A DNA stretch of 64,000 bases from NCBI GenBank assembly GCA_964545075.1, contig CAZJFS010000001.1:33890-97889 (forward strand), written 5' to 3'. The notes under the pieces are model-generated. The model saw only the letters and a program-made list of their open reading frames with translations, was not told the origin of the DNA and made no database searches. Origin of the DNA: an uncultured bacterium (lineage in GTDB: Bacteria > Muiribacteriota > UBA9980). Below, in pieces: positions 2,617 through 52,600 of this stretch. Both the position numbers and the translations under genes were made by a program. Positions within the stretch are counted from its first letter, which is position 1; each line of letters starts with the position of its first letter.

Positions 2617-3083
2617 TTTTAGCTCCTTTTATTATTATATTATTATATGAAATCAAAGACTATTTTATAGCAAAAGGCGTTTAATTATTTTTCAAATGTG
2701 TTACAAAACCGGATTTTTAAAAGAATAGATCGCATAATTTTTAAAATTATGAATTAATTATTATCAGAACCGGTATTTTATCAAAATTCTTTTGAACCGT
2801 CAAGATGTTTTTGTCTGGTACTATTTTCATAATATTAATCAGTTAATATATTCCCGCATTAAAATATAACCAGGCGTAGAAATCAGGAAAGCGGCTGAAA
2901 AATATACTTTTTAAAATAACGGCGTCTGATAAATCGGACGCCTTGAATTATGATGTCAAATTTTTGTGATAATGTCCTGTTGAATTATGATTGAAATCAG
3001 ACTGATTTTATGTTAGAATATCTTTTCGTAATGGATTCGAGTATAATATTAAAATTCTTAAAAATGTTACAAATGAAGCTTTT

Positions 3084-4139: not shown

Positions 4140-4153
4140 GGTTTTGAAAACAA

Positions 4154-13309: not shown

Positions 13310-13310
13310 G

Positions 13311-15008: not shown

Positions 15009-15066
15009 TATTATCTTATAAGCCCTTTAATGTTTTTATCAGGAACACTCGTTCCAGCGGATTCGC

Positions 15067-15948: not shown

Positions 15949-16018
15949 TTTTTTATTCTCCGGTAAGATTTACGAACTTCTTTAGCGGCGGCGAATTTAT
16001 TGCTTATTCACTTTATAA

Positions 16019-29708: not shown

Positions 29709-31352
29709 ATGAAAAAAATATTACTTGTTGCGATAGTTTTATTATTAATCTGCGGCGGCGCGGCGCGCGCGGAAAACACATTTGATGATCTGAAAAAGAA
29801 AGCCGCAAGCGGAGACGCGGCTGCGCTGGGGCTTTTAGGCGAAGCGTATTCCTGCGGCTGGAACGGCGCGCCAAAAGACGATAAAAAAGCCGTCGAATGT
29901 TTTGAAAAAGCGGCCGCGCAGGGCGATCCTGTCGGTCAATACTATATGGGAACGATATTTTATTTCGGCAATACGGTTAATAAAGATTATAAGAAAGCCG
30001 CGGAATGGTTTGAAAAAGCCGCGCTTCATGGCGAGATCAGGGCCCAGGGCAATATCGCGATGATGTATTACGAGGGAACCGATTTCCCTCAGAACAATAT
30101 CATGGCTTACGCATATTATAATATCATCGCCTCGGGTCCGACCGCGGATCCGATCAGTAAAAAAGCGGCCGCTGAAAGCCTCGATAAACTTCAAAAAAAA
30201 ATGAGCCCGCAACAGATCGATAAGGCTAAAGAAAAAAGCCGGGATCTGTTAAAAAAGATCGATGAAAATTTTAAAAAAACTAAAATAACGCCGGCGGCGC
30301 CTAAGTATCCGGTTAACACGGCAAGAATCCTCAAAACCGATGAAATATTTATTGAGGCCGTATCTTCGCTGGACATTAAAACGATCAACGAATTAATAAA
30401 AAAAGGCTATAAAATTAAAGATCTTCCTTCCGATTACGCGCCTGTGTTAATAACGGTGATCGGTTCGCAGAACGCTAATTTCGCCAGATTCATGGGGGCC
30501 AAGGCGGAAGCCGCGAAAGGTTACACGGAAGAGTCACTAAAAAAATCGGTCGCAGCCAAAAAAAACGTTGTTTTTAAATTACTGGCCGAAAACGGAGCGG
30601 AATGTAACATAGCGAACAGCGGCGGAGAAAAACTTATCGCTCTTGCCGCAGCGACAGGCGATTCCGAAATAGTTAAATACCTTCTCGCCAAAAAGAGCGA
30701 CGTGACAAACCTGAATAAAAACGGCGACGATCTCTTATACTGCGCCATAGGTTCACATTCTTTAGAAACTGTCAAGACTGTAGTTGAAAGCGCTTATGGA
30801 CCAGGACTTATCAAATCAGGCGCGCGCTCGGCGGCCAGGGCGGCCACTTTAAAAGAAGACGGCATTTTAAAGTATTTGATTGAAAAAGGAATTAATATAA
30901 ATGGCAATACCGGAAGCGCCGCAGGAAATGAAAGCGGAAACAATTCCTCATGGAAACCTTTAAAAGCCGCACTATACAATAAAAATATCGACGCCCTCAA
31001 ACTTCTTATAGAAAAAGGCGCGGACTTAAAAATAATCAATAAGAACGGTGAGAACTGCCTTTTCGAATTAACGGGAGGCATTACCGGCGATGAGATGGAT
31101 GACAAAACAGTTGAAATCGCTAAAATGCTCGTAGCCCGCGGCGTAACCGCCAACATCAAAAACAACTCCGGCGAAACAGTATTAATGATGGCCGCCAGGA
31201 ATGGAAGCGTGCCCTTCATGAAATTTTTGATTGAAAACGGCTCCGATGTGAACGCGAGAAATAATAACGGCATTACGGCAATGGGTTACGCTAAAAAAGC
31301 CAGGCAGCAAAATTCGATCGCGTTTCTCAATTCCGTTAACGCCGTTGAATAA
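29709..31352 (+). CDS. Secreted Sel1-repeat + ankyrin-repeat protein
   Basis: Signal peptide MKKILLVAIVLLLICGGAARA. Sel1-like repeats (GDAAALGLLGEAYSCG...AVECFEKAAAQGDPVGQYYMG...AAEWFEKAALHGEIRAQGNIAMMY). C-terminal ankyrin repeats (GETVLMMAARNGSVPFMKFLIENGSDVNARNNNGITAMGYA). Confidence 0.65.
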   Translation: MKKILLVAIVLLLICGGAARAENTFDDLKKKAASGDAAALGLLGEAYSCGWNGAPKDDKKAVECFEKAAAQGDPVGQYYMGTIFYFGNTVNKDYKKAAEWFEKAALHGEIRAQGNIAMMYYEGTDFPQNNIMAYAYYNIIASGPTADPISKKAAAESLDKLQKKMSPQQIDKAKEKSRDLLKKIDENFKKTKITPAAPKYPVNTARILKTDEIFIEAVSSLDIKTINELIKKGYKIKDLPSDYAPVLITVIGSQNANFARFMGAKAEAAKGYTEESLKKSVAAKKNVVFKLLAENGAECNIANSGGEKLIALAAATGDSEIVKYLLAKKSDVTNLNKNGDDLLYCAIGSHSLETVKTVVESAYGPGLIKSGARSAARAATLKEDGILKYLIEKGININGNTGSAAGNESGNNSSWKPLKAALYNKNIDALKLLIEKGADLKIINKNGENCLFELTGGITGDEMDDKTVEIAKMLVARGVTANIKNNSGETVLMMAARNGSVPFMKFLIENGSDVNARNNNGITAMGYAKKARQQNSIAFLNSVNAVE

Positions 31353-38272: not shown

Positions 38273-39121
38273 CTATATCCGTATATTGCTTTTTTTGTTG
38301 AATGGCTTTTTATCGATCCGGTCGCTGAAAGCCTCGACGAGTTTCTTTTCCCATATGAGACAGGCTTTATAATAACCAATTTTCCCAAGAACTTTAAAAT
38401 ATTGAGGCATTAGGCCGTTAAGCATGGCATGCCTTTGATAAGGCTTGGGCCCGTGAAAATGAATTATGGCGGCTTTACCAAGGCTTCCCCAGTACGGCTT
38501 CCAGTTATATTCGGGCGGAATGCGGTCATATTTGCCGGCATAGTAGGAACGATAGGCGGCCTGATCATAAGATGAATTCACGAATTCATCCATGTTTTTT
38601 CTGATATGCGCCATAAAACCTGCGAGGGTCTTTCCGAGATTTTCAATATTCATTATCATTACGCCCGTGTTCATGGCCGTATAATTAGACTTCGTAAATT
38701 CCGGACCGACCGTGAAATATTCAGGCTTTAATTTTTTAAAGTAATCGACGCAATTTTTCATGAACATCACATCGCAGTCCGTATAGAGTACGAACTTATC
38801 CTTCCAACCGCGTTCAGCCATTATGGCCGGAATCTCGACCCTTAAAAACGCTCCCGTGGCGGCCGAAAAAGCCCAGGGCGTATTATCGATGCCGCTGGCG
38901 GACTTTATTTCATCATAAAAAGCGGTTCTTTTATTGATTATGGTGACGGGCTTACCTTCAAGCCATTTCAATAGATGATTTCCATCGTCCTCGCCGTCGT
39001 ATAGAAATACAGGCTCGAGGCATGGATTGTGCTTCATAGCGGTATAAAACGCTACCTGCAGCATATTTGCGTAATAATCGAACGCCATGGAATCGCGTCC
39101 GAGCGCGAAAAACCATTTCAT
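38273..39121 (-). CDS. Putative nucleotide-sugar glycosyltransferase (DxD motif)
   Basis: FVLYTDCDVMFMKN (DxD). No firm family assignment. Overlaps the upstream gene by 4 nt (operon). Confidence 0.3.
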   Translation of the reverse strand: MKWFFALGRDSMAFDYYANMLQVAFYTAMKHNPCLEPVFLYDGEDDGNHLLKWLEGKPVTIINKRTAFYDEIKSASGIDNTPWAFSAATGAFLRVEIPAIMAERGWKDKFVLYTDCDVMFMKNCVDYFKKLKPEYFTVGPEFTKSNYTAMNTGVMIMNIENLGKTLAGFMAHIRKNMDEFVNSSYDQAAYRSYYAGKYDRIPPEYNWKPYWGSLGKAAIIHFHGPKPYQRHAMLNGLMPQYFKVLGKIGYYKACLIWEKKLVEAFSDRIDKKPFNKKSNIRI

Positions 39122-40047
39122 CTCAGCTTCTCCATAAAATCGTTCTTAAAAATATTTCTTATGCTGCGGTAATAGCTTATACTATTCATTTTGGACGCGG
39201 CATAGTGATGCGCGACGGTATTTTGATTCACGGGACATGTAACGTGATCGTCATCGAAAGCCGAGATCTGGTATCCGGTTCCAAGGCATTCAAATATATT
39301 CGAATACTTTGATATTATAAGCGCATGAAGCGTTTGTTCTATCCACCATTGGGCTATTTTGTTCTTTTCTATAAAAATCAGCTCAAGGTAATTTTCTATA
39401 AAATCCATTTCGTATATGTTTTTATCGGGAATAAAAACCAGCCCGGCGTTCACCCGGTCCGTAATTTCAAAAGGAAATTTTGAACTCAGATATTTTATGG
39501 GCAAGGCATAAGCGTTAATGCTGTCGCGCATGAAAAACCCTCTTCCGGTTTCGATACAGTTTATAATTTGCGAACAGTGGTTGAAAAATAAAATATCGGC
39601 GTCCATCATTAAATAGCCCGGAGTTGACGAAAGAAATAAAAAATCAAGAAGCTTGAGCGCAAAAATATGCCGGTTCCGGCCAAACCTGTATTCATTTGAA
39701 AATCTGTATCCTTTAAGAGCGCCGGCCATTTTTTCGTCGGCTTCTTTTTTGCTGATTATTTTACAGCCTGATAAATGCCGCTTGAGCGTTTCAACGCTTT
39801 TATCGTTTAAGGAACCATCGTCATGTATCACGAGCCGGCCGTCATATTTAGAGTGATAATAAAATGTTTTAAGACACCACAGGGCCGCCGCCACGTCCCT
39901 TTCACAAAGCAGCATATGGATCTCGTATTTATCAGCATCGTCAAACGAAACGGGAGGGGAATTCAATATCCGCTGGTTGTAGGAGCCGCACATGATATCG
40001 TTGCAGTCGGGTTCAAATTTATATTCGTTCATTGAATTCATTCGCAA
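39118..40047 (-). CDS. Putative nucleotide-sugar glycosyltransferase (DxD motif)
   Basis: LVIHDDGSL and MMDADILFF motifs. No firm family assignment. Confidence 0.3.
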   Translation of the reverse strand: MRMNSMNEYKFEPDCNDIMCGSYNQRILNSPPVSFDDADKYEIHMLLCERDVAAALWCLKTFYYHSKYDGRLVIHDDGSLNDKSVETLKRHLSGCKIISKKEADEKMAGALKGYRFSNEYRFGRNRHIFALKLLDFLFLSSTPGYLMMDADILFFNHCSQIINCIETGRGFFMRDSINAYALPIKYLSSKFPFEITDRVNAGLVFIPDKNIYEMDFIENYLELIFIEKNKIAQWWIEQTLHALIISKYSNIFECLGTGYQISAFDDDHVTCPVNQNTVAHHYAASKMNSISYYRSIRNIFKNDFMEKLR

Positions 40048-40239
40048 ATTATAAATAATTGAAAGGCCGTTGTCAATAAAATTATTCGGCGGCGGTCTTG
40101 TTTTCCATTGACAAATTATGTTCCACTGGTATAATATGATCTTGTTTCTTCAAATGTTTTTAATGTAAAATTTCGTCCGGTATTGTTTCAAATCAACTTT
40201 TATATAACGTTTTTCAAATTGAATTATAAAAAAAGAAAA

Positions 40240-41610
40240 ATGAACATTAAAAAGAAAAATTCTAAAATAACTATTATAGGCGGGGGGCTTGCGGGATGCG
40301 AGGCTGCATGGCAGGCCGCCAAACTCGGGGTCGAAGTCGATCTTTATGAAATGAGGCCGCTGGTAAAAAGCGGAGTTCATCGCAGCGATCATCTGGGAGA
40401 ACTTGTCTGCACCGATTATCTGGGGCCTAAAGATTTTCCTGAAACTCAGTTTGAGATCGCTCTCAGCCATATGTTATTGCGTGAAGAATTAAGGACCATG
40501 GATTCGCTGATCATGGACTGCGCGGATAAAGCTAAAATCAATACTAAAAAATATTTCGCGGTAAATAGAAACGATTTCGCGGTAAATATCACCAGACGTA
40601 TTTCATCTCATCCGCTTATAAAAGTTATTAACGAAGAAATCAAAAAAATCCCCGAAGGGCCGGTGATAATATCGACCGGCCCGCTAACGTCATGCGACAT
40701 GGCAAAGTCGATATCAGGATTCGCGGGCGCCGAAAATTTTTTTGGATTTGAATCGTCCGCCCCGCTGATACATTCCGGCTCCATCGGCAACGGCGCAATG
40801 GTCCCTGAAGTCTATACCGACGAAAACGGGGCGGATCATGAATGCCTGTACTGCCGGATGAAAAAAGACGAATTTGAAAAATTTCACAAAGCCCTCGTAG
40901 AGGCCGTTCAGGTAAAAGCTCATGTTATTGAAAAAGTTTACATGGACGATATAACGCTGCCAAAGCTTTCATGGATAGATCATCTGGGCGGAAAAGCGAT
41001 CGAGGCCCTCGATAAAACAAGCCTGCTCGAAAAAGTTTTATCGCCGCGAGATATGCCGTCCTTTAAAAGCGGCGCCGAAAAAGATTATGCCGTTTTAAAA
41101 TTGATAAAAATGTATGGCCAGGACGCCTATAAAATGCTCGGATTTCAAACCAAATTAAAATACGGCGAGCAGAAACGGGTCTTTTCGATGATTCCGGGGC
41201 TTGAAAACGCGAACTTTATTCGTTACGGCCACATGCACCTGAGCTGCTATATTAATTCCGGCCAGTGCCTGCCGACGCTTCAGCACAAAAGCAGAAACGA
41301 TCTTTTCTTTGCCGGAGAAATAGCCGGAACCGACACGTATCTCGCCGCGGCCGGAACCGGCTGGATCGCGGGACAAAATGCCACGAGACTTATAAAAAAT
41401 GAACCGCTTTTAATATTACCTCAAAACACTATGTTCGGAGCCTTGTGTTTTTATCTGGCCTATTGCCCTCCGGATAAATTTCAGCCAATCTGCCCTACGC
41501 TATTTTTATTAAGACCAGCGCCTTCAACCGATGACCTTTCTAATTCAGAAAAAATAAAATCTTTTTACCAAAAGTCTTTATCAGGCTTAAAAGAATACCT
41601 TGCCGGATAA
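40240..41610 (+). CDS. trmFO: Methylenetetrahydrofolate--tRNA-(uracil54-C5)-methyltransferase TrmFO (Gid)
   Basis: KITIIGGGLAGCEAAWQAAKLGVEVDLYEMRP...ELVC matches the TrmFO N-terminus. Start moved to the internal ATG at 40240 (MNIKKKN...) because the upstream extension is not conserved-looking. Confidence 0.8.
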   Translation: MNIKKKNSKITIIGGGLAGCEAAWQAAKLGVEVDLYEMRPLVKSGVHRSDHLGELVCTDYLGPKDFPETQFEIALSHMLLREELRTMDSLIMDCADKAKINTKKYFAVNRNDFAVNITRRISSHPLIKVINEEIKKIPEGPVIISTGPLTSCDMAKSISGFAGAENFFGFESSAPLIHSGSIGNGAMVPEVYTDENGADHECLYCRMKKDEFEKFHKALVEAVQVKAHVIEKVYMDDITLPKLSWIDHLGGKAIEALDKTSLLEKVLSPRDMPSFKSGAEKDYAVLKLIKMYGQDAYKMLGFQTKLKYGEQKRVFSMIPGLENANFIRYGHMHLSCYINSGQCLPTLQHKSRNDLFFAGEIAGTDTYLAAAGTGWIAGQNATRLIKNEPLLILPQNTMFGALCFYLAYCPPDKFQPICPTLFLLRPAPSTDDLSNSEKIKSFYQKSLSGLKEYLAG

Positions 41611-41649: not shown

Positions 41650-41676
41650 TTGACAAAGTTTAAATTATGATATAAT
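41650..41676 (+). promoter_or_regulatory. Candidate sigma70 promoter for the RiPP precursor (TTGACA-15nt-TATAAT)
   Basis: Consensus -35 TTGACA at 41650-41655 and consensus -10 TATAAT at 41671-41676 (15-nt spacer, on the short side). A 6-bp inverted repeat CCGTTA-n7-TAACGG follows at 41696-41714 in the 5'UTR. Strong SD AAGGAGG 7 nt before the ATG at 41738. Confidence 0.45.
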
Positions 41677-41737
41677 ATCTTTGTATGGAACGATGCCGTT
41701 AAACTAAATAACGGCGATATAGTTAAGGAGGATTTCG

Positions 41738-42046
41738 ATGGACGTAAAAAACCAATCAAAAAAGTATATGCAGGTAATCGCTAAATGTTGGTCAGACCCG
41801 GCTTTCAAAACTAGTTTTATAAAAGATCCGGCTAAAGTACTCAAAGAAAATGGCGTTGAAATGCCTGCCGGCATGAAACTGCATGCCGTTGAAAATACCG
41901 AAAAAGAATGTTACATAATAATTCCGCCGAAACCTTCAACCGAGCTCTCGGACGATCAGCTTGATAAGGTCGCCGGTGGCGGCACTTGGGGAACTATAGG
42001 TTCCGCCTGCATCGCAACCGCTGGAACGGCTTATTGCCACGGTTAA
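41738..42046 (+). CDS. RiPP precursor peptide, nitrile-hydratase-like leader peptide (NHLP / proteusin-type) with Cys/Ser/Thr/Gly-rich core
   Basis: Leader MDVKNQSKKYMQVIAKCWSDPAFKTSFIKDPAKVLKENGVEMPAGMKLHAVENTEKECYIIIPPKPSTELSDDQLDKVAGG follows the NHLP pattern (...AWxDPAF...L.V.ENT......P.....ELSDEELE.VAGG) with a double-Gly cleavage motif. Predicted core GTWGTIGSACIATAGTAYCHG (2 Cys, 1 Ser, 4 Thr). Perfect SD. Immediately upstream of the cyclodehydratase gene. Confidence 0.85.
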   Translation: MDVKNQSKKYMQVIAKCWSDPAFKTSFIKDPAKVLKENGVEMPAGMKLHAVENTEKECYIIIPPKPSTELSDDQLDKVAGGGTWGTIGSACIATAGTAYCHG

Positions 42047-42083
42047 TCCATAAGAATTAATACAGCAAAATAATCAAATGAAA

Positions 42084-42130
42084 AACGGCCATCGTTAAGA
42101 GGCATTAAGCCTGCTGATGGCTGTTTTTCA
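42084..42130 (+). terminator. Hairpin + T-run after the precursor gene (probable partial terminator / attenuator)
   Basis: AACGGCCATC...GATGGCTGTT ~10-bp stem (one G-T wobble) with a ~22-nt loop, followed by TTTTT. Sits in the 132-nt gap between the precursor and the first modification enzyme. Confidence 0.4.
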
Positions 42131-42178
42131 TAGCATATGGCTTTTGATTTATTTATTTTTTGTTAAGGCGTTCATAAC

Positions 42179-44461
42179 TTGAATAAAAAAATTATTTTTA
42201 AAAACCACTTTCATGTCGAAATCATCGATTCCGATAGTTGCGTCATACTGGTTTCCGAAAATTCGAACTTTGTCCTGAAAGGCCGGCTTTATTGCCTCAT
42301 CGCAAGAATGCTCGACGGTTCGAAAGACGCCGATGAAATAGTCGACGCGCTGGAAACCGAAGTTTCAGGGGCCGAGGTTTATTTCACGCTTGAAAAGCTC
42401 AAGCATAAAGGCTATATTACCGAAAAAAACGAAACCGTGTCTTCAACATTCGCCGCTTACTGGAGCCTTCTTGGCGTTTCCGAATTCAGCGCAAAAGAAG
42501 CGCTTGAAAACACGCTTATCAAATTAACGGCGATCGCTGATACAGATGTCGGGCCGCTTGAAGTCGCGATAAAAAACGCCGGCATGAGCGTCGAAGTATG
42601 CGGAACCGACAGCGCATTCGAAGGAAAGCACCGGGCAAGACAAATTATCGTGATCGCGGCTCCTGATTATCTTTATCCTGAACTTTTCGAAATAAACAGA
42701 AACTCCATCAAAAAAAACATTCCATGGATGCTCATCAAGCCTTCAGGCGCGATCATCTGGATCGGCCCTATTTTTATTCCGGGTAGGACCGGCTGCTTTG
42801 AATGCCTCGCTCAGCGCCTTAAAACCAATCGCGACATCGAAATGTTCATCCAATCGAAAAAAAATGATCTTTCGCCTATCGTCACATCGAGAGGAACCAT
42901 TCCGTCAAGCGTTCAAATGGCGTATCAGATGGCCGCCCAACAACTGGCGATCTGGGCGGTGCAAAACGAAGGAGCGAACCTGGCCGGACGCGTCATAAGC
43001 GTAAACACCACTACGCTTTTATCGCAGGAGCATATTTTAACGAAACGTCCGCAATGTCCTGCCTGCAATATAGGTTCACCCGCGGATGAAAAACCTAACC
43101 CGCCCGTCCTGAAAAGCATAATCAAAGATACCGATTCACTTTACGGCGGCTGCCGGACGATGAGCCCGGAGGAAACTTTCAATAAATTTTCAAACCACGT
43201 AAGCCCTATAACCGGAGTGGTAAATTCCCTGGTCAAGGCCGAAAGCGGCAGCGACGGAATCTTGAACGTTTACTTCGCCGGCCAGAATTCGGCGATGCGC
43301 AACAATAACATCATGGCGCTTCAAAAAAATCTGCGCAGCATGAGCGCGGGAAAAGGCATAACTGAAATAGCCGCCAAAACCGGTGCTTTATGCGAAGCAA
43401 TTGAAAGATATTCAGGTCTTTATAACGGCAACGAGCCTAAAATAAAAACAAGCTATTCTAAAATAAAAGATCAGGCCGTTCTACCCAACGACTGCATGAA
43501 TTACAGCGACGAACAATTTAAGAACAGGAACATAATAAACTCTCAAGGCCATCATTTCCAGACGGTTCCGGAACCGTTCGATGAAAACGCCGTCGTCGAA
43601 TGGACGCCATTTTGGTCGCTCGAAAAAAAAGAATGGCGTTACGTCATCTCCAGCTATTGTTACTACGGTTATCACGACCCCGAAGGGCATTTTTTTTCGT
43701 GGCCGAATTCGAACGGATGCGCGTCAGGCAATACACTCGAGGAAGCTATTCTACAGGGATTTTTCGAAATAAACGAACGCGACGCTGTAGCCCTGTGGTG
43801 GTATAATATGATAAAAAGGCCTGCCGTGGACCTCGAAAGTTTTAACATCGCCTATATCGAAAAATTATATTACGCGTATAAAAAGAAGAACAGGAAATTC
43901 TGGGTGCTCGACATTACCAGCGATACCGGAATTCCGACTTTTACGGCCGTCTCTTACAAGCCGGATTCGGACCGCGAAGAAATAGTTTTCGCCTTCGGGT
44001 CTCATTTCGACCCCAAAACGGCGCTTATAAGAGCGCTCACGGAAATGAATCAGTTCATGCCTTCCGTCCTCGAAGATTCTCCCGGCGAGTATTCATTCAA
44101 GGACCCGTTCGTAACGTCGTGGTGGAAGAACGCTAAACTCCGTAATGAATCATATCTGGCTCCGGATAAGACTCAGCCGGCCAGAAAGCTGTCGGATTTC
44201 AATGATATTTCGTCTAACGATATGCTCGCGGATATTAACCGGTGCGTGAATTTGATGGATGAGCGCGGCATGCGGACGCTTATACTGGACCAGACCCAGC
44301 CGGACGTCGGATTGAACGTGGTTAAAATCATAGTGCCTGGAATGCGCCATATGTGGCAGCGTCTCGGCCCCGGAAGGTTATACGACATACCAGTCGAAAT
44401 GGGATGGCTCAAAAAACCTAAAAAAGAAAATGAAATGAATAAAACCGCCATTTTCGTTTAG
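42179..44461 (+). CDS. Fused E1-like (ocin-ThiF/RRE) + YcaO azoline-forming cyclodehydratase (PatD/TruD-like), copy 1
   Basis: 760 aa. Two CxxC motifs (GRTGCFECLAQRL, RPQCPACNIG), as in the Zn-binding PatD/TruD class. YcaO motifs GKGITEIAAKTGALCEAIERYSG and FFEINERDAVALWWYN. TTG start as called; the true start is uncertain. Confidence 0.85.
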   Translation: MNKKIIFKNHFHVEIIDSDSCVILVSENSNFVLKGRLYCLIARMLDGSKDADEIVDALETEVSGAEVYFTLEKLKHKGYITEKNETVSSTFAAYWSLLGVSEFSAKEALENTLIKLTAIADTDVGPLEVAIKNAGMSVEVCGTDSAFEGKHRARQIIVIAAPDYLYPELFEINRNSIKKNIPWMLIKPSGAIIWIGPIFIPGRTGCFECLAQRLKTNRDIEMFIQSKKNDLSPIVTSRGTIPSSVQMAYQMAAQQLAIWAVQNEGANLAGRVISVNTTTLLSQEHILTKRPQCPACNIGSPADEKPNPPVLKSIIKDTDSLYGGCRTMSPEETFNKFSNHVSPITGVVNSLVKAESGSDGILNVYFAGQNSAMRNNNIMALQKNLRSMSAGKGITEIAAKTGALCEAIERYSGLYNGNEPKIKTSYSKIKDQAVLPNDCMNYSDEQFKNRNIINSQGHHFQTVPEPFDENAVVEWTPFWSLEKKEWRYVISSYCYYGYHDPEGHFFSWPNSNGCASGNTLEEAILQGFFEINERDAVALWWYNMIKRPAVDLESFNIAYIEKLYYAYKKKNRKFWVLDITSDTGIPTFTAVSYKPDSDREEIVFAFGSHFDPKTALIRALTEMNQFMPSVLEDSPGEYSFKDPFVTSWWKNAKLRNESYLAPDKTQPARKLSDFNDISSNDMLADINRCVNLMDERGMRTLILDQTQPDVGLNVVKIIVPGMRHMWQRLGPGRLYDIPVEMGWLKKPKKENEMNKTAIFV

Positions 44462-44482: not shown

Positions 44483-45916
44483 ATGAATAAAGACTCGGAT
44501 ATTTTAAAATTTCGCGACGCGATTAATATTTCGGTGGTCTCCGGCGACGAAATCATAGTGCAGGACGAGATGTTTTCGCTAAAAATCCAGAATTGCTCAA
44601 AAGCGATAAGCTGTTTTTTAGACGCGATAAAAAACAGCGGCGGAAGCGAAGACTGTCTTTCGGAAATCGTTCTGGCCAATGGCGACAACAATGATCTGAT
44701 GAACTTTTATTACTATCTTGAAAGGTTTTCAAAACTTTGCATGATATCCAGAACGTTATGCGATAAAGGATTGAAAATGGTTACGCTAGAACCTATATCG
44801 CTTGGTTTTAAATGGAACGCTGAGCGCAAACTCGACGAAAATCAAAAACATGTGATGTCGCGGTTCGTCTTCTCTCGAAGAGACGGCGCGAAACATATAT
44901 GCGAATCGCCTTTATCGCTGGCCCGTCTGGTGATCATCGATGAAAAGTGCGCCGATTTTCTTCATTTCCTCTCATCGCCAATAAGCCTTGACGGGCTATG
45001 CGCGAAACTCCCTTCGCTCACGAAGGAATTTATCGAATATTTTCTTGAAACGCTTTTCAATTCAGGGTTCGTCGTCCCGGTTGCCGATGACGGGACGAGC
45101 GTCGAGGATAAGAGCGAAGCGCTGTTGCAGTGGGACTTCCATGATCTTTTGTTTCACTCGCGGACGCGCATAGGCCGTCATAATTACCCGAACGGCGCGA
45201 CATATCCTTATCTAAAAAAGATAGAGCCTCTTCCGGCGTATAAAGAGCCCATGACCGAAAACGGCATTGATTTATACAAACCCGATATCGAAACGCTTAA
45301 ATCCGAAGATTTTCCATTCACGCTCGTTTTAGAGCAGCGTCAATCGGTCAGAACTTACTCCGACCGGCCAATAAAGATGGAACAGCTCGGCGAATTTTTA
45401 TACCGGTCCTTCCGCATCAAGGAAGTGATCGACGCTCCGCCCGGCGAAGCCGAATCATATCAGGTCGGCCGCAGGACCTACGCCGGCGGCGGCGCATGCT
45501 ATGAACTTGAAATTTATCCGGTAATCAATAAATGCGAAGGGCTTGCGCGCGGAATATATCATTATGATCCGTTGAACCACAGATTGCATCTTATAAATGA
45601 TGATATGTTTTTCGTAGAGACGCTCGTACGGAGGGCGTCGATGTCCGCGGCCAAACTTTGCGTTCCGGAAGTATTATTCGCGATAACAGCCAGATTCGCT
45701 AGAATTTCATGGAAATACAGCGGAATGGCGTACGCCGCGATCTTAAAAAACGTGGGGTCATTATATCAAAATATGTATCTGGTCGCGACCGCCATGGACC
45801 TCGCCCCCTGCGCGCTCGGCAACGGCGAATCCGACGTCATCTGCAAAGCGGCGGGACTTGATTATATTTCAGAATCCGCCGTCGGCGAATTTATATTAGG
45901 CAATAAAAGGATTTAA
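44483..45916 (+). CDS. SagB/ThcOx-type FMN-dependent azoline dehydrogenase with N-terminal extension
   Basis: C-terminal nitroreductase-like domain (RQSVRTYSD...YAGGGACYELEIYPV...CALGNG) typical of SagB/McbC. The ~200-aa N-terminal extension is reminiscent of the RRE-like domains of cyanobactin ThcOx. 477 aa. Confidence 0.75.
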   Translation: MNKDSDILKFRDAINISVVSGDEIIVQDEMFSLKIQNCSKAISCFLDAIKNSGGSEDCLSEIVLANGDNNDLMNFYYYLERFSKLCMISRTLCDKGLKMVTLEPISLGFKWNAERKLDENQKHVMSRFVFSRRDGAKHICESPLSLARLVIIDEKCADFLHFLSSPISLDGLCAKLPSLTKEFIEYFLETLFNSGFVVPVADDGTSVEDKSEALLQWDFHDLLFHSRTRIGRHNYPNGATYPYLKKIEPLPAYKEPMTENGIDLYKPDIETLKSEDFPFTLVLEQRQSVRTYSDRPIKMEQLGEFLYRSFRIKEVIDAPPGEAESYQVGRRTYAGGGACYELEIYPVINKCEGLARGIYHYDPLNHRLHLINDDMFFVETLVRRASMSAAKLCVPEVLFAITARFARISWKYSGMAYAAILKNVGSLYQNMYLVATAMDLAPCALGNGESDVICKAAGLDYISESAVGEFILGNKRI

Positions 45917-45918
45917 TT

Positions 45919-47271
45919 ATGCGTAGAGTTATATGCACGTTTCCGGTGATGAAATTCACCGACGAGAAACCGGTCCAGATAAAAAACAGCTTTATCTCTC
46001 GAAGCTCTTCTCCATATAATATTTACCTGCTCGCATCGATAATGGAAAACAACGGATACGAGGTCGATATCAAGGATTGGATAAGCCTGAACTGCGACGT
46101 CGAAGAGGCCGCGAAGGAACTTCTGGAATATGATCTCGTTATGATATCGTGCCTTTCATGGTCATGGCCTCCGGTTATATTTATCATCGATTATCTTCGC
46201 AAAAAAAGAAACGACCAGATAATCGTCGTCGGCGGAGTGCAGGCATCTTTATTCGGCGTTCAGATCCTCGAAGAATTCGAGGTCGATTACGCAGTTTGCG
46301 GCGAGGCTGAAAGATCCATAATTCCGCTGATAGAAACTATAGAAAAAAAGGGCGATCCGCGCCGCGTACCAGGGCTCGTATATAAGGAAAACGGCGCTAT
46401 TATAAAAAACGAGCTGGCGTCCCTGCTGAATCCGTCGGAAATCGGCGAACTTCCGCTTCCGCTATATGAACGCCTTCCTAAAGATTCATGCAACTGGCTT
46501 TCGATACAATCCTCGCGCGGGTGCAGGAACCGCTGCATTTATTGCTCGGTGCCGTATCATCGCAGCTGGCGCCCGCTCGAACCGGAAAAATTCGTCGAAA
46601 AGATCATCGAATATTCGCCATTTCTTAAACGCACGCTTTCAGGAAAATTCATGATCATCGACGATAACTTCACCATAAATCCCGAAAGGTCCATCGCGAT
46701 AGCCAAGCTCTCGAAACAAAAAGGCGTTAAATTTGACGCCATCTGGAACGCCGAAGTTCCGGACCTTTATAATAGCGAGCTGCTCAGCGAAATGGCGCCA
46801 TTCACCGACGGGATTCTTGTAGGCGCGGAATCCTTCGATGCTGAAACGATCATCAAGATCGGCAAGGGTTATAAACCCGAAGATATCGTCGCTGGCGCCT
46901 TGAACGCTCAAAAATGCGGCATATCAAACAAACTCATATGCTCTTTTATTATAGGTTTTCCGTGGCAAACTAAAGAAATGATCATCGAGGAAATTAACCA
47001 AATATACGACCTGGTAAATCTGGCCGATCTAAACGTTATAATCAATTGGCTCACCCTTTCGCCGGGATCTCGGCTGTGGGCTGAAAAATTCAAACAGCCG
47101 ATCAAATTACGTGAATTTTCAAAACAATTCAGACGGATGCAGGAAAATATAAACATTCTTACGAATCAGGATATCGAAGAAATAAAAATGTATATAAAGC
47201 TTCTGCAATCCAACATAGAAAACGGTTATTACAGGTTCCAGCACCATCCCAGCATTTTTTATATTGTCTGA
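45919..47271 (+). CDS. B12-binding radical SAM enzyme (class B rSAM, probable C-methyltransferase)
   Basis: N-terminal B12-binding Rossmann-like region (IIVVGGVQAS...DYAVCGEAE), then the radical SAM cluster motif SSRGCRNRCIYCSVPY (CxxxCxxC). Confidence 0.75.
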   Translation: MRRVICTFPVMKFTDEKPVQIKNSFISRSSSPYNIYLLASIMENNGYEVDIKDWISLNCDVEEAAKELLEYDLVMISCLSWSWPPVIFIIDYLRKKRNDQIIVVGGVQASLFGVQILEEFEVDYAVCGEAERSIIPLIETIEKKGDPRRVPGLVYKENGAIIKNELASLLNPSEIGELPLPLYERLPKDSCNWLSIQSSRGCRNRCIYCSVPYHRSWRPLEPEKFVEKIIEYSPFLKRTLSGKFMIIDDNFTINPERSIAIAKLSKQKGVKFDAIWNAEVPDLYNSELLSEMAPFTDGILVGAESFDAETIIKIGKGYKPEDIVAGALNAQKCGISNKLICSFIIGFPWQTKEMIIEEINQIYDLVNLADLNVIINWLTLSPGSRLWAEKFKQPIKLREFSKQFRRMQENINILTNQDIEEIKMYIKLLQSNIENGYYRFQHHPSIFYIV

Positions 47272-47360: not shown

Positions 47361-49592
47361 ATGATAGAAAAACCTCTAATTAAACATCATTTCCAGATGG
47401 AGATCTTGAAAGAAAAAGTTTATCTTTTTTCTGAAAATGAAAATTTTATTCTTAAAGGTCGCCTTTATACCTCAATAGCGTCTCTTATGGATGGAAAAAG
47501 GTCCTGCCACGAAATAGCGGATATGCTTTCGGAAAATTTTTATCCCGCGGAAGTTTATTATGCTTTTGAAATAATGGAAAAAAAAGGCTATATAACCGAG
47601 GATTCACCATGTTTTAACGCTGAAGAAAAAAAATTCTGGAATTCGCTTGGGTTTCATACAAAAGACGTAGAAGAAAAACTTAAAAACACCCATCTTTCGC
47701 TTATATCTATAGGAAATCATCGGAAAATGGCTTCCCTTCTGAAGAAATATAAAATAGAAGTCTCTTCCGAGTCGAAATTTATGGTCGTTATAACGGATGA
47801 TTACATGCACGAAAGCCTTTCGGAGATCAACAGAGAAAACCTGAAAACCTGCAGGCCGTGGCTTCTAGTAAAACCTTCAGGGCTCATCCCTTCAATCGGG
47901 CCGCTTTTTATTCCCGGTAAAACTGCTTGTTATGAGTGCTTTTCCAACCGCTACAAAGCTAACAGGGAAATAAACGATTCTATTTTTCAAAAAATGCTGA
48001 AAGATAAAATTATGCCCTCGGCCACTATGCCTTTTACGGGCGATATTGTTTATCAAATGTCAGTTATGGAGATCGCCAGATATATAGCAGAAGGGAAAAA
48101 TGAAAGACTGGAAGGAAAAATCATAAGTTTTAATTCCCTGAATCTAAAAACAAAGGAACACATTCTCATAAAGCGACCCGAATGTAACTCTTGCGGAAAC
48201 CCTCATGAAAGAAGCCTTCTCTTTCCGGCGCAGATAAATTTACAAAGCAGAAAAAAGACGTATGTCACGGATGGAGATCATAGATCGTGCGACCCAGAAG
48301 CGACATTTGAAAAATATAAACACAATATCAGTGAATTTACAGGAGTTATAGCAAAATTTATAAACAATACAAGCGGTAATAAAGGGCCGCTTCACGTTTA
48401 CTTTTCCGGGCATAATCTCGCCCTTAATCCAGCCCATATAGCGGTCGAAAAGAACAGCCTTAGAAATCTCAGCGCCGGCAAAGGCATGACAGATATTCAG
48501 GCAAAGGTAAGTTCTCTCGCGGAAGCTTTGGAAAGATATTCGGGTATTTTTCGCGGCGACGAATACAGAATAAAAAGCACTTATAAAAAACTTGGCGATC
48601 AGGCAATTCATCCTAATAACTGCATGAATTACAGTAAAAGCCAGTATATAAATAGAATTGCCCTCAATAAAAGGGGGCTTCTTTTTCACACCGTCCCTCT
48701 TCCTTTCGATGAAGACATTGAAATAGAATGGTCTCCCGTCTGGTCTATATCGAAAAAAAACTGGAAATATCTGCCTACTTCTTACTGCTATTTCGGATAT
48801 AGGTATAAATACGAGGACGGCCGTGATTTTTTCGCCTGGGGAGATTCTAACGGTTTCGCTTCAGGCAATACCATAGAAGAAGCCATACTTCATGGTTTTT
48901 TTGAACTCGTAGAAAGAGACGCCGTCGCGATATGGTGGTATAATAAATTAACAAAGCCGGCCGTCGATCTTTCAAGTTTCAATCATCCATATATAAAAAA
49001 ATTAATGGATTATTATAATCTTTTAGGAAGAAACCTGTGGGTATTAGATCTCACTACCGATTTTAATATTCCTGTTTTCGCCGCCATTTCCATGAACCTG
49101 AAAAATAATATGGATGAAATTCTTTTTGCCTTTGGATGTCATTTCGATCCGGAAATTGCTCTTCTCAGATCTCTGTGTGAACTAAACCAGTTCGTTTCAA
49201 TCGCGATCGACAAACCTGAACACGATAACAATCATAATAACGATACGTCAAAGGCATGGTTGAAAAGCGCCGCGGTAAAAGATCATTCATATCTCGTGCC
49301 CGGAAAAACAATAAAAAGATTTCCGGATTATAAATCGCGTGCCACGGACGATCTTCTCAAAGATATACAATTATGTAACCAAGTAGTTGAAGAACTCGGC
49401 ATGGAAATGCTCGTACTCGATCAAACAAGAGCTGACGTAGGAATGAATGTAGTGAAGGTTATCGTACCGGGAATGAGGCATATGTGGGAAAGATTCAAGG
49501 AAGGACGTCTTTATGACGTTCCCGTAAAAATGAGATGGCTATCTGAAAAGAAAAATGAAAAAGAATTAAATCCAATAGGAGTATTTGTATAA
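47361..49592 (+). CDS. Fused E1-like + YcaO cyclodehydratase (PatD/TruD-like), copy 2 (paralog of 42179..44461)
   Basis: 743 aa. N-terminus HHFQMEILKEKVYLFSENENFILKGRLY parallels copy 1. CxxC motifs GKTACYECFSNRY and RPECNSCGNP. YcaO motifs GKGMTDIQAKVSSLAEALERYSG and FFELVERDAVAIWWYN. Both copies look intact. Confidence 0.85.
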   Translation: MIEKPLIKHHFQMEILKEKVYLFSENENFILKGRLYTSIASLMDGKRSCHEIADMLSENFYPAEVYYAFEIMEKKGYITEDSPCFNAEEKKFWNSLGFHTKDVEEKLKNTHLSLISIGNHRKMASLLKKYKIEVSSESKFMVVITDDYMHESLSEINRENLKTCRPWLLVKPSGLIPSIGPLFIPGKTACYECFSNRYKANREINDSIFQKMLKDKIMPSATMPFTGDIVYQMSVMEIARYIAEGKNERLEGKIISFNSLNLKTKEHILIKRPECNSCGNPHERSLLFPAQINLQSRKKTYVTDGDHRSCDPEATFEKYKHNISEFTGVIAKFINNTSGNKGPLHVYFSGHNLALNPAHIAVEKNSLRNLSAGKGMTDIQAKVSSLAEALERYSGIFRGDEYRIKSTYKKLGDQAIHPNNCMNYSKSQYINRIALNKRGLLFHTVPLPFDEDIEIEWSPVWSISKKNWKYLPTSYCYFGYRYKYEDGRDFFAWGDSNGFASGNTIEEAILHGFFELVERDAVAIWWYNKLTKPAVDLSSFNHPYIKKLMDYYNLLGRNLWVLDLTTDFNIPVFAAISMNLKNNMDEILFAFGCHFDPEIALLRSLCELNQFVSIAIDKPEHDNNHNNDTSKAWLKSAAVKDHSYLVPGKTIKRFPDYKSRATDDLLKDIQLCNQVVEELGMEMLVLDQTRADVGMNVVKVIVPGMRHMWERFKEGRLYDVPVKMRWLSEKKNEKELNPIGVFV

Positions 49593-49621: not shown

Positions 49622-52600
49622 ATGAGCGATAAAAAATTTTTTCGTCTCACGCATCCGCAGAAACGCATCTGGTACACTGAAAAAACATATTTAAATACGG
49701 CATTCGCGAATCTGGCCAACGTCATCAGATACAGGCGTGAAATAAACGTCGAAATTCTCGAAAAAGCTATAAAATCAGTAATCTCAAAGCACGAAGGCAT
49801 TCGCCTCAGACTTTCCGGCGAACGCGAAGGCATCGAAGAATTTCAATACGTTTCTGATTCAATCCCTGAAAAGATCGACCACCTTGATTTTTCAGGCCCG
49901 CGCGGAACGGATAAATTAGAGGAATGGATCTGCTCAAACGCTTCAACCCCGTTTCCGATATTTGACTCCCCGCTTTACTATTTCGCGACCATCCGCTTTG
50001 CAAATAACGATTCGGGCTATTCGGATACGGGATTTTATTTCAAGCTTCATCATATAATTTCCGACGGCTGGACGCTCGCCATTATTTATAATCAGGTTCT
50101 CGATCATTATTTAAAGATTGAAAGCGGACTTGAAAGCGAAATCAGCGACAATCCGACTTATTTGAATTACATCGGGGACGAGGACAATTATTTAACTTCT
50201 CCGGAATTCGCGGAAGACGAAAAATTCTGGTTTGACGACCTGTCAGACAAGCTGGACGTATCATCATTGAATCAGGACAAACCGGTCGCCTCTTCCATAC
50301 GATCTAAAAGGGCTATTTTTACGATTTCAAGAGAATTGCGCGAAAAAATCCACGAATATAAGCGATCGGGAAGCACCACGGTCTTTAAAATTATAACCGC
50401 GGCATTCTTCATATATATTTCGCGCGTCAATTCGGCGAAGAATATAGCGATCACGACGGCCGTCCACGGCCGGAACAATTCAAAAATGAGATCCACCGCG
50501 GGAATGTTCGTCGGCACCATACCATTGCGGATAACGATAGACGGGCGGGACACCTTTGAAAAGATCGTCTCGAGCCTCGGCGAAAAATTGAACTACATAA
50601 TTAAGAAGCCCGCCAGATACCCTTTTGACATGCTCATCAACAGGATGCGCGAAGAAAAAAATCCCAACGCCGATATTATGCTTGAATGCCCGAGCGTCGT
50701 CGGCCATCCTGACGATAAAAACGAGGACATATCGTTTATAAACCATTATCAGAGCTATGAACCTTCATGCCTTGCCATGCACATAAATCCCTTTGGAACC
50801 GACGCAAAAGGCAAACTTGACATCATACTCGATTACCAGACGGAACTATTTTCCCATGAAAATATCGAAACGGTCTTTAATTCACTTTCATGCATATTGA
50901 ACGATGCGCTGGATAACGTTAAAAAGTCCGTCTGCGATTTGAATATGATTTCGGAAGAAGAAAAAAGAAAGGTCTTAGTAGATTTTAACCGGACCGAAGA
51001 ACAATTTTCTGGCGGAGAGACGCTTTTCGATCTTTTCGAGGAGGCGTCAAAAAAATATCCGCGAAGGACGGCGCTCGTTTACGACGACGTTTCCATAACC
51101 TATTCGGAGCTTTCGGACAAAGTCGGGCGGCTCGCCTCGAGGCTCGCGAATCTCGGCGTCGGACCCGAAAAAATAGCGGCGATATACGCGCAACGCTCGC
51201 AATATTACGTTATAGCTATGCTCGCCATAATGAAGGCGGGCGGAGCGTATCTGCCGATCGACGTTTCATATCCCCGCGAACGGGTCAATTTCATGCTTAA
51301 AGACGCCGAAGTCTCGGCCGTGCTTACCATGGAAAACCTTAACGATAAATTCGACTGCGACGCTTCACGCGTCTTTTTAGATGACGAAAATTCATATACC
51401 GGCGCTCCATGCGATTTAAAATCTCAGGCTGCGGCAAGAAATCTCGCGTATATAATATATACCTCGGGTTCCACCGGCAAACCCAAAGGCGTTATGATAG
51501 AACACCGCTCGGCCGTAAACATGATATGCTGGAGCATAAAGCATTATCAAATGAGCCACCAGGACCGGTGCGCCCAGTTCGCGTCGTTCGCTTTCGACGC
51601 CTCGGTGCCGCAGACATTTTCGCCTCTCGCCAGAGGCGCGGAGCTTCATATTTTAAAAGACGATTTGCGTTATTCGCCATTGCTCGCCAACGATTATTTT
51701 GAAAAAAACGGCATAACCTATGCCGATCTTCCGACCCAGTTCTGCGAGCAATTCATCAGGGAAACGAACAATCACTCGTTAAGAAGGGCTACCACTGGCG
51801 GTGAAAAATTAAAAAATGCGCCGGAGAACATAAATTTCGTGCTTACCGATGAATACGGCCCGACCGAATGCACCGTCACCGCGACATATTATGACGTGGA
51901 CGGAAAATATTCAAAGACGCCCATTGGAAAACCTATATCTAACATCAGGGTGTATATTCTCGATAAAAAAGATCTTCCCGTTCCGGTAGGAGCGCCGGGA
52001 GAACTATGCGTCGCGGGCGCGGGCCTGGCCAGAGGCTATCTCAACAGGCCCGAGCTGACGGTGGAAAAATTCGTCGCCGACCCGTTCATGCCGGGCGAAA
52101 AAATGTACCGCACCGGCGATCTCGCCAGGTGGCTGCCCGACGGCAATATCGATTATCTCGGCCGCATCGATCATCAAGTCAAAATAAGAGGATTCAGAGT
52201 CGAGCTGGAAGAGATACAAAATGAGATAATCAAACATCCAATGGTCAGCGACGCCGTTATAGCGAACGGCAAGAACGCCGACGGCGATGATTTTATTTCG
52301 GCGCATATAATACTGAAAAAAGAAGCGGACGGGATTAATTTTTCACATGAGCGAATCAATGAATTTCTTTCAAAAACTCTTCCAAATTATATGCTGCCCT
52401 CGAAAATAATGTTCATCGACAGGATACCGCTGACATCGGGCGGCAAGGCCGATAAAAAAGCGCTTCTGGCAATGCTGCCTGAAGAAGGCCGACTGGCCGC
52501 GTTCGTCGCGCCGTCGAATGAAACGGAAAAAACGCTGGCCGGAATCTGGTCGGAACTTTTAAACGTCAAAAAAATCGGCGTAACGGATGATTTTTTTGAG

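Follow-up and report, generated by a model that had tools for sequence, protein, structure and literature searches.

The stretch of DNA analysed here (64,000 nt; "the window" in the following) spans positions 33,890 to 97,889 of contig CAZJFS010000001.1 from an uncultured bacterium (GenBank assembly GCA_964545075.1) and carries a gene for a short ribosomal peptide together with genes for two cyclodehydratases (D1 and D2), an azoline oxidase, and a B12-binding radical S-adenosylmethionine (SAM) enzyme. We are highly confident that these genes form an azol(in)e peptide cluster of NHLP (nitrile hydratase-like leader peptide) type. For the pathway as a whole, we slightly favour a reading in which two competent cyclodehydratases act on different subsets of sites in one NHLP precursor, and we are evenly divided on the narrower claim that D1 and D2 share out the heterocyclisation sites between them. 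The cluster comprises the following features, all on the forward strand of the window:

41650-41678 (+), promoter-like TTGACA-17-TAATAT (TATAAT-like; 10/12 matches in a consensus scan), a putative promoter
41738-42046 (+), precursor open reading frame (ORF), 102 codons and 102 amino acids (aa), by translation
41738-41980 (+), leader of NHLP type, residues 1-81, ending in VAGG (TIGR03793)
41981-42043 (+; to 42046 with the stop codon), core GTWGTIGSACIATAGTAYCHG, residues 82-102, 21 aa, by translation
42078-42131 (+), stable hairpin with T-run 3' of the precursor gene (RNA fold)
42179-44461 (+), D1, fused winged-helix/E1-like/YcaO cyclodehydratase of LynD/PatD type, 760 aa (Pfam/NCBIfam profiles)
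44483-45916 (+), FMN-dependent azoline oxidase of ThcOx/CyaGox (SagB) type, preceded at its N-terminus by a pair of RRE-like domains (PF22767, PF18679, PF00881)
45919-47271 (+), class B (B12-binding) radical-SAM enzyme, 450 aa (PF02310 and PF04055)
47361-49592 (+), D2, second fused winged-helix/E1-like/YcaO cyclodehydratase from a small distinct clade, 743 aa (Pfam/NCBIfam profiles)

The cyclodehydratase pair and the precursor peptide

In both D1 and D2, a winged-helix/RRE domain and an E1-like domain accompany a YcaO domain that is complete (PF02624, positions 1-325 of 325; 323 bits for D1, which also matches PF21084, and 334 bits for D2). Each exceeds the cut-offs of TIGR03604 (264 and 270 bits, respectively; cut-off 219) and TIGR03882 (136 and 124 bits; cut-off 37), and the two are 43% identical to each other. 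Among solved structures, D1 matches MusD (657 bits), LynD (633 bits), and TruD (617 bits) and D2 matches LynD (625 bits) and MusD (606 bits), with full-length matches of both enzymes to LynD, TruD, and MusD and 39-45% identity to LynD, TruD, MusD, and PatD alike. Reading the specificity of either enzyme from its nearest characterised relative was dropped because the identities are equal and the gaps between the MusD and LynD scores are too small.

The initial annotation had described two intact but diverged paralogs and had proposed to look for mutated ATP-binding Glu/Arg residues in one of them. An alignment of D1 and D2, together with orthologues of each, to 111 other PatD-like enzymes revealed no such mutation: two ExxER motifs and one RxxxE motif are kept in D1 (E406/E409/R410, E530/E533/R534, and R618/E622) as well as in D2 (E388/E391/R392, E515/E518/R519, and R603/E607), residues that we take to match E423/E426 of LynD and the ATP motif of Ec-YcaO. 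The GKG and SNGxASGNT motifs and two CxxC (zinc) motifs are likewise kept in both enzymes. Residue roles were assigned from family conservation and the published work on McbBCD (PMC6395948). Compared with the sister genome on contig L004 (with L015, from the same sample), the ratio of nonsynonymous to synonymous substitution rates (dN/dS) is 0.07 for D1 and 0.12 for D2, next to 0.08 for the oxidase, 0.10 for the radical-SAM enzyme, and 0.06 for the housekeeping gene hemC. Intact motifs and purifying selection in both genes thus make a dead copy unlikely; we struck it from the candidates, and the earlier suggestion that one copy serves as a catalytically dead, leader-binding scaffold is disfavoured on the same grounds. 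As both genes are intact, kept as a pair, and under selective constraint, D1 and D2 are very probably both needed.

Each of the two clades carries its own set of changes within otherwise well-conserved motifs. At columns of at least 95% conservation, the D1 clade has replaced the Ser at LynD position S419 with Gly and the Pro of YLPT with Ile or Leu and has altered DGGHR, while its C-terminal NPxP has become N(K/Q/H)xA (NKTAIFV in the window, with both Pro gone). In the D2 clade, DGGHR reads DGDHR, the Gln of EEAILQG is His, the Thr of RAxTE is Cys, CWxCL..RL after the first zinc ligands has become CYxCF..RY, and the tail reads NPxG (NPIGVFV in the window), with the second Pro exchanged for Gly. 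The consensus tail of the PatD-like family is LNPxP followed by three hydrophobic residues, and this Pro-rich tail extends into the active site in LynD and McbD (PMC6395948); MusD (NPIS) and PatD (NPTN), both active, likewise are without the second Pro. Of 153 family-conserved columns, D1 retains 134 and D2 retains 140 compared to at least 145 in each of the 111 other enzymes, a control that is partly circular in that these 111 enzymes themselves define the columns.

The precursor ORF is real and has the translation given by the initial annotation. It is preceded by a ribosome-binding site (AGGAGG) and is the only precursor gene that tblastn detected in the window. Its leader matches the NHLP model TIGR03793 with 83.5 bits (cut-off 50.9; E 7e-24), with model positions 6-77 of 77 aligned to residues 10-81, so that the leader ends in ...DKVAGG and the core comprises residues 82-102. 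It also resembles the nitrile hydratase alpha subunit (PF02979; E 2e-15, profile positions 38-93 only), has C17 and C58 as its only Cys residues, and carries no CxxCSC metal-binding motif in its sequence; likeness to nitrile hydratase alpha without CxxCSC is the published criterion for NHLP leaders (PMC4603692). LDKVAGG at residues 75-81 falls where the TIGR03793 model ends (the Eremiobacterota orthologue described below ends in ...VAAG), and leader removal at the double glycine is predicted from the family. Just ahead of VAGG lies an L(X)4L motif at L70/L75 (L70-SDDQ-L75), which is required for recognition of MprE7 by MprC and of PatE by LynD (PMC12455567). At a distance of 38 kb from the precursor gene, a 351-aa ORF (3084-4139, +) encodes a stand-alone Peptidase_C39 domain (residues 145-269) without the ABC transporter part and is the sole candidate for a double-glycine leader protease in the window. 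Downstream of the precursor gene, the hairpin at 42078-42131 (-30.3 kcal/mol with z -4.54, a stability that no sequence among 200 shuffles reached) is probably a partial terminator or attenuator; a consensus terminator scan found nothing 3' of the gene because the hairpin loop of more than 8 nt exceeds its limit.

The core contains seven heterocyclisable residues (C10, C19, S8, T2, T5, T13, and T16). The earlier count of two Cys and five Ser/Thr therefore holds, but the Ser had been placed at position 9 and is found at position 8; similarly, flanking by Gly or Ala is right for the residue directly before the Cys, Ser, or Thr in six of the seven cases but not for C19, which sits between Tyr and His.

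The oxidase scores 166 bits against TIGR03605 (cut-off 78) and matches CyaGox (5LQ4) over its full length (270 bits). The radical-SAM enzyme carries its CxxxCxxC motif at residues 202-209, stays below threshold in all its matches to named NCBIfam families, and has weak matches to the structures 9CCB, OxsB, CysS, TsrM, and TokK; it is the sole radical-SAM gene of the cluster, which encodes no PoyD-type epimerase. From its class B architecture and precedents such as NstA of the nostatin pathway (PMC11583998), we presume it to be a peptide C-methyltransferase. The gene is present in every related locus (in two copies in L007), though L011 and L012 are seen only from the precursor to the oxidase, and its target is therefore most likely a core residue that is invariant across these loci, i.e., G4, I6, G7, C10, I11, T13, A14, G15, T16, A17, Y18, or H20. 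Among the methylation sites proposed by the initial annotation, Trp3 is unlikely as it is Ala or Val in relatives with the same enzyme, and so is Gly21 as it is absent from the Eremiobacterota orthologues, which leaves Tyr18 and His20 as possible targets.

Related loci and conservation of the core

Searches for relatives of the cluster gave the loci below (A, precursor; Ox, oxidase; rSAM, radical-SAM enzyme; D, cyclodehydratase). The label Wallbacteria is the NCBI name (Candidatus Wallbacteria) on proteins 100% identical to D1 and D2 (P0005 and P0071), and L015 and L004 are two contigs from one sample that we read as a single cluster.

Window, L010 (same genome), and L015+L004 (sister genome), Wallbacteria: A-D1-Ox-rSAM-D2, core GTWGTIGSACIATAGTAYCHG
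L001/L003 and L009, Eremiobacterota/Vulcanimicrobiota genome and JGI contig: A-D1-D2-Ox-rSAM, core GTWGTIGSACIATAGTAYCH
L007/L008, metagenome: A-D1-Ox-rSAM-rSAM with no D2 within 10 kb, core KSCDHTAGTIGCACIVTAGTAYSH
L013/L014, metagenome: A-D1-Ox-rSAM with no D2, core SSCDSTAGTIGSICIATAGTAYSH
L011, metagenome (contig Ga0351860_1031, 28 kb): A-D1-Ox, remainder beyond the sequence seen, core GGSSNTAGTIGCACIVTAGTAYSH
L012, metagenome: A-D1-Ox, remainder beyond the sequence seen, core SSSNTVGSIGSACIVTAGTAYSH
L005, metagenome: A-D(P0009)-Ox-rSAM with a D2-like enzyme as only cyclodehydratase, core YTTLGTMACVCFVTVGTVACGTLPD
L002, assembly GCA_964551445.1: rSAM-A-D1-Ox, then contig end, core KSGQTGCCCTGLCCCTGHGV

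The pair of D1 and D2 is kept in two phyla and four loci with rearranged gene order. D1 of the window is 56% identical to its Eremiobacterota counterpart E_Da and D2 is 71% identical to E_Db, which makes D2 the most conserved enzyme of the cluster across phyla, compared to 43-46% in all cross-comparisons of D1 to D2. From this clean orthology it follows that the pair is older than the split of the Wallbacteria and Eremiobacterota versions. Neighbour-joining against the 111 other PatD-like enzymes supports D1 and D2 with bootstrap values of 100 each and a group of D1, D2, and P0009 with 76, which points to an old duplication within this peptide family.

D2 is rare, with four protein clusters of more than 70% identity among 5.8 billion proteins and the next one at 49%, and scanning a genome collection with D2 returned one genome only, that of the Eremiobacterota/Vulcanimicrobiota. 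A metagenome scan for the core pattern ACIxTAGTAYxH gave two loci only, one of which belongs to the genome of the window (L010; 99.87% identity over 10.3 kb), and a precursor protein search that was limited by its word prefilter gave four relatives only. In L013 and L007, tblastn with D2 matched D1 only. L011 and L012 share an upstream PfkB gene with L009 and L001 (82-88% identity) and have the oxidase directly after D1, where L009 and L001 have D2.

The core is conserved far beyond the rest of the precursor. Its residues 1-20 are identical (20/20) between the window and the Eremiobacterota loci L001 and L009, while 13 of the 20 shared codons differ, every change being synonymous, and the leaders are only 56% identical; at the substitution rate of the leader, such identity would arise with a chance of about 8e-6. 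The sole variable core residue in this comparison is Gly21, which the Eremiobacterota orthologues do not have. Among the relatives, Ser and Cys are swapped at core positions 8 and 19, as would be expected at heterocyclised sites, and His20 is strictly kept in five of six core types. Over the shared 19 residues, most differences between the cores of D1-only loci and the core served by D1 and D2 fall on four positions, namely 3 (Ala or Val versus Trp), 8 (Cys or Ser versus Ser), 12 (Val or Ala versus Ala), and 19 (always Ser versus always Cys).

The last of these positions follows the distribution of the enzymes. Cys19 is found in all D2-bearing loci (the window, L015+L004, L001, and L009), and the locus with only a D2-like enzyme, L005, has Cys at the matching position. 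Ser19 is found in the D1-only loci L007 and L013, both of which are seen complete, and also in L011 and L012. In the loci seen, Cys19 thus accompanies D2 or a D2-like enzyme without exception.

Several of the related loci adjoin other features of their own. The precursor of L002 (10001-10306, +) has a very different, Cys-rich core (KSGQTGCCCTGLCCCTGHGV) beside a D1-type enzyme of 67% and a radical-SAM enzyme of 64% identity, so that this enzyme set would serve poly-Cys cores too; the contig stops ahead of any possible D2. Upstream of the D1-only cluster of L007 lie five tandem B12 radical-SAM genes of ca. 583-586 aa each (1-7177, -), an array that recalls the multiple C-methyltransferases of polytheonamide-type proteusins, and the two radical-SAM genes of the cluster itself are tandem copies of a 452-aa enzyme. 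Eremiobacterota-type clusters are accompanied by a GT28/EryCIII-like glycosyltransferase and a 273-279-aa protein without a Pfam hit (65-78% identity; L007 17017-19429, L009 11759-13855, and L013 15616-17723, all -), which suggests peptide glycosylation in these loci. L013 and L005 adjoin second, unrelated small-peptide systems: a Nif11-type precursor (93 aa with a Cys/Trp-rich tail) with a radical-SAM/SPASM enzyme in L013 (4415-6274, +) and a 60-aa peptide ending in ...ISGGADKGANHFCAFDGTDLICWPPSK followed by a radical-SAM enzyme in L005 (5593-7341, +).

A proposed division of labour and competing explanations

The reading that we slightly favour would run as follows. As the one precursor of a linear peptide with azol(in)e rings, the gene product would dock through its structured nitrile hydratase-like (proteusin-type) leader on the winged-helix/E1-like clamp of the LynD-type cyclodehydratases. 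D1 and D2, anciently diverged and both competent, would then carry out ATP-dependent cyclodehydration of different subsets of the seven Cys/Ser/Thr positions, with D1 serving the central sites including the invariant Cys10 and D2 being tied to the C-terminal Tyr18-Cys19 site and/or the Trp3-containing N-terminus. The ThcOx-type flavoprotein would convert azolines to azoles, the B12 radical-SAM enzyme would modify and most likely C-methylate one invariant core residue, and a protease whose gene lies elsewhere would cut off the leader at the double glycine.

The initial annotation had suggested residue-type or position-specific heterocyclisation. Its general idea agrees with the presence of D2 where Cys19 is found and its absence where Ser19 is found, but a split of Cys versus Ser/Thr between the two enzymes finds no footing in the alignment with LynD, TruD, PatD, and MusD, to which D1 and D2 are equally distant (39-45%), and very similar cores that are served by only one of the two enzyme types speak further against such a simple chemical split. 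What hint there is favours a site-specific role of D2 at the C-terminal Tyr-Cys-His end, or one linked to the Trp-bearing N-terminus, over a clean separation by residue type.

Several points weigh against the favoured reading. D1 alone (L007 and L013) or a D2-like enzyme alone (L005) serves very similar cores, so that one cyclodehydratase can apparently suffice for these and the second enzyme would be an addition tied to particular core changes rather than a general requirement. Statistically, the association of D2 with Cys19 is weak and may go back to no more than one or two evolutionary events, given that Wallbacteria and Eremiobacterota have identical cores of possibly common origin; moreover, the pairing of Ser19 with a lack of D2 is partial in L011 and L012, where only A-D1-Ox is seen. 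The clade-specific changes at near-invariant positions may signify an altered or non-canonical activity of D1 and D2. No leader protease, C39 peptidase-ABC transporter, or C1A protease is found among the cluster genes, and it is by homology that we infer the chemical steps, the assignment of residues to enzymes, and the cleavage site.

A bolder version of a site-specific D2 would make it a new functional subtype of LynD-like YcaO enzymes and, rather than another general heterocyclase, a specialist for the C-terminal Tyr-Cys-His end of the partly modified core that makes the last thiazole or trims the tail in the manner of MusD, acquired together with the change of Ser19 to Cys, with a product that hits a specific conserved target; we rate this proposal as rather improbable. 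MusD itself, a LynD-like fused YcaO enzyme, removes C-terminal residues after azoles in muscoride biosynthesis according to a review (PMC10885120). By analogy, either paralog might perform such ATP-dependent cleavage after the last azole, trimming His or His-Gly, or might form an amidine. This view gains from MusD being the best solved-structure match of D1 (657 bits), from the loss of the second Pro of NPxP in MusD, D1, and D2 alike, from the unusual divergence of the two clades (134 and 140 of 153 columns versus at least 145 in the 111 others), and from the terminal Gly21 being the sole variable core residue, which would be irrelevant if the tail were removed. However, the other D1- and D2-specific substitutions do not occur in MusD, the ordinary heterocyclase PatD (NPTN) is without the second Pro as well, and strict retention of His20 in five of six core types is unexpected for a discarded residue; furthermore, a partner for thioamide formation, TfuA or otherwise, is missing. 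We therefore judge other YcaO chemistry by one paralog to be unlikely.

It is likewise unlikely that D1 and D2 form an obligate heteromer in which one protomer mainly holds the leader while the other is mainly catalytic. Such an arrangement would have its analogy in the head-to-tail homodimers of LynD and TruD, where domain 1 from one subunit and domain 2 from its partner make up the leader clamp, and in McbBCD, whose two E1-like subunits have different roles (PMC6395948, also for the inter-subunit peptide clamp of the dimeric LynD-type enzymes). Changes of the D2 clade indeed cluster at the first CxxC and the following helix (CWxCL..RL to CYxCF..RY) and those of the D1 clade in the YcaO domain and the C-terminal tail, but both enzymes have complete catalytic motifs and leader-binding domains, D1-type and D2-like enzymes stand alone in related clusters and are necessarily homomeric there, and the two genes are non-adjacent in the window, with an order that varies between lineages. 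That the second cyclodehydratase is redundant or being lost, with one enzyme doing all the work, would suit the single-enzyme clusters with closely related cores (L007, L013, and L005) but is hardly credible for two full-length genes with intact motifs and low dN/dS that persist as an orthologous pair in two phyla and four loci despite rearranged order, all the more as no other enzyme of the cluster is as conserved as D2 (71% across phyla).

A further explanation involves the genes that follow D2 in the window, a nonribosomal peptide synthetase (NRPS) and an exporter of the major facilitator superfamily (MFS):

49622-57523 (+), bimodular NRPS with the architecture C-A-T-C-A-T-R, 2633 aa (Pfam domains)
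57543-58994 (+), DHA2-type MFS exporter (Pfam domains)

The NRPS gene begins 29 nt downstream of D2, in the same orientation and behind an AGGAGG-like site of its own, and is followed by the MFS gene, such that the peptide genes and the NRPS could form one hybrid pathway in which, e.g., an acyl-dipeptide aldehyde from the NRPS is coupled to the peptide of ribosomal origin. In the sister genome (L004; D2 86% identical), however, the stop codon of hemC lies 16 nt after that of D2, at the very junction where the window has 9.4 kb of NRPS and MFS genes before hemC, which follows the exporter on the opposite strand. The NRPS-MFS pair is also absent from L001, L009, L007, and L013 and from all other related loci, while the core peptide remains identical, and no ligase or condensation-type coupling enzyme is evident. 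We therefore rejected the NRPS as a default part of the peptide pathway, regard a hybrid as very unlikely, and treat the NRPS-MFS pair as an insertion apart from the cluster, specific to the strain and possibly co-transcribed. From its architecture, the NRPS product is likely an N-acyl dipeptide aldehyde or alcohol.

Neighbouring genes, known systems and significance

Upstream, the cluster adjoins a gene for a TrmFO-like folate/FAD tRNA methyltransferase (40183-41610, +), which is also found beside the clusters of L009 (13962-15377, -) and L015 (4526-5896, +). It thus accompanies both D2-bearing lineages with different position and orientation (56% identity between phyla) and is absent near the D1-only clusters L007 and L013, which could be coincidence, a common origin of the insertion site, or a function linked to the cluster. 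In L010 (4802-6228), trmFO is broken up into ORFs of 304 and 212 aa; compared with the intact gene of the window, this indicates that the two records differ by a frameshift or through an assembly error. In place of the glycosyltransferase and its partner in the Eremiobacterota-type loci, the Wallbacteria version has, just upstream (38273-40047, -), a pair of genes unrelated to these for proteins of 282 and 309 aa that is conserved in L015; the former has a weak GT8 match (24.0 bits; cut-off 24.3) and the latter no Pfam match.

At 12317-17113 (-), the window contains a run of genes that by order and domain set looks like an OleABCD cluster for long-chain olefins. It encodes a KAS III/thiolase-like protein at 16019-17113, an alpha/beta hydrolase at 15067-15948, an AMP-binding enzyme at 13311-15008, and a 3-beta-HSD/NAD-dependent reductase at 12317-13393, with a beta-ketoacyl synthase gene nearby (10421-11665, -). 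Ankyrin-repeat proteins are encoded at 29709-31352 (+), there together with Sel1 repeats, and at 7859-8461 (-); such eukaryote-like repeat proteins are unusual in free-living bacteria.

The azole type of NHLP/proteusin cluster is already established by MprC/MprD/MprE and nostatin A after earlier bioinformatic predictions (PMC4603692), and the enzymes found here belong to the families of cyanobactin heterocyclases and ThcOx. A close parallel is the Mpr system of Methylovulum psychrotolerans (Agarwal lab; PMC12455567), which shares an NHLP leader of ca. 81 residues with L(X)4L (L70/L75) before the double glycine, through which MprC and MprD act on their precursors, and a LynD-like fused YcaO cyclodehydratase with an FMN oxidase, a pair that makes thiazoles. 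However, it combines one cyclodehydratase with ten hypervariable precursors and no described radical-SAM enzyme, whereas the cluster of the window has one invariant precursor, two diverged cyclodehydratases, and a B12 radical-SAM enzyme. The nst cluster for nostatin A of Nostoc (PMC11583998) is alike in its NHLP precursor, YcaO cyclodehydratase, azoline oxidase, and class B cobalamin radical-SAM enzyme, the C-methyltransferase NstA that iteratively methylates Pro, but differs by its single cyclodehydratase, a PoyD-like epimerase, a LanM-like dehydratase, and an unrelated, Ser/Cys-rich core of 30 aa. With the cyanobactin enzymes LynD/TruD/PatD and ThcOx/CyaGox, the cluster shares the three-domain cyclodehydratase (39-45% identity), the catalytic motifs, and the type of oxidase, unlike the number of heterocyclases (two rather than one), the clade-specific changes at family-invariant positions, and the NHLP precursor. 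We detected no PatA/PatG subtilisin-like protease or macrocyclase domains in the scanned ORFs from 3 kb to 60 kb, and a PatE-type precursor with recognition sequences was not encountered.

The initial annotation had called two heterocyclases for one short core unusual, and they are uncommon but not unprecedented. In sulfomycin biosynthesis, two distinct YcaO enzymes share azole installation, as reported by Du et al. 2020 (cited in PMC10849128), and two YcaO enzymes are also encoded in the clusters of coryneazolisin (PMC4603692) and the Thioglobus dehydrazole (PMC10676384). The YcaO enzymes of these clusters are discrete or of mixed architecture, come with separate E1-like/Ocin-ThiF partners, or serve different precursors, whereas both enzymes of the window are fused LynD-type proteins with a single precursor. 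MusD (PDB 7U58) is comparable to D1 and D2 as a fused LynD-like YcaO enzyme without the second Pro of NPxP, but also cleaves the follower peptide (PMC10885120), an activity of which the analysis gave no sign for D1 and D2, and has none of the other substitutions specific to the D1 and D2 clades. Curacozole CzlD/CzlBC was rejected as a precedent for split specificity since it comprises one YcaO enzyme and an E1-like/oxidase fusion, not two cyclodehydratases.

Bottromycin is made with two YcaO enzymes, one forming a thiazoline and one a macroamidine, together with B12 radical-SAM methyltransferases, and thus resembles the cluster of the window in applying two YcaO enzymes and B12 radical-SAM chemistry to one short core; its YcaO enzymes are, unlike D1 and D2, stand-alone domains without E1-like/RRE parts, its precursor bears a follower in place of an NHLP leader, and the proteins show no relationship in sequence. 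In the literature, we found no description of a conserved fused LynD-type pair that acts alongside one NHLP precursor and a radical-SAM enzyme of the B12 type, nor of the GTIGxxCIxTAGTAYxH core family.

PatD and TruD are close relatives and yet differ in their acceptance of Ser/Thr, and how YcaO enzymes choose their residues is poorly understood. Near-identical cores that occur with D1 alone, a D2-like enzyme alone, or both amount to a natural experiment on this site selectivity, which the Ser/Cys swaps at defined positions and the clade-specific enzyme substitutions make directly testable. To our knowledge, hardly any natural products have been described for Wallbacteria or Eremiobacterota. 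A core that is identical at 20 of 20 residues between two candidate phyla while leader and enzymes have drifted to 50-70% implies a sequence-specific activity, and the strongly conserved product of these barely explored phyla would be worth isolating. Rather than a new kind of system, the cluster thus offers a good case for learning why one short peptide needs two ring-forming enzymes.

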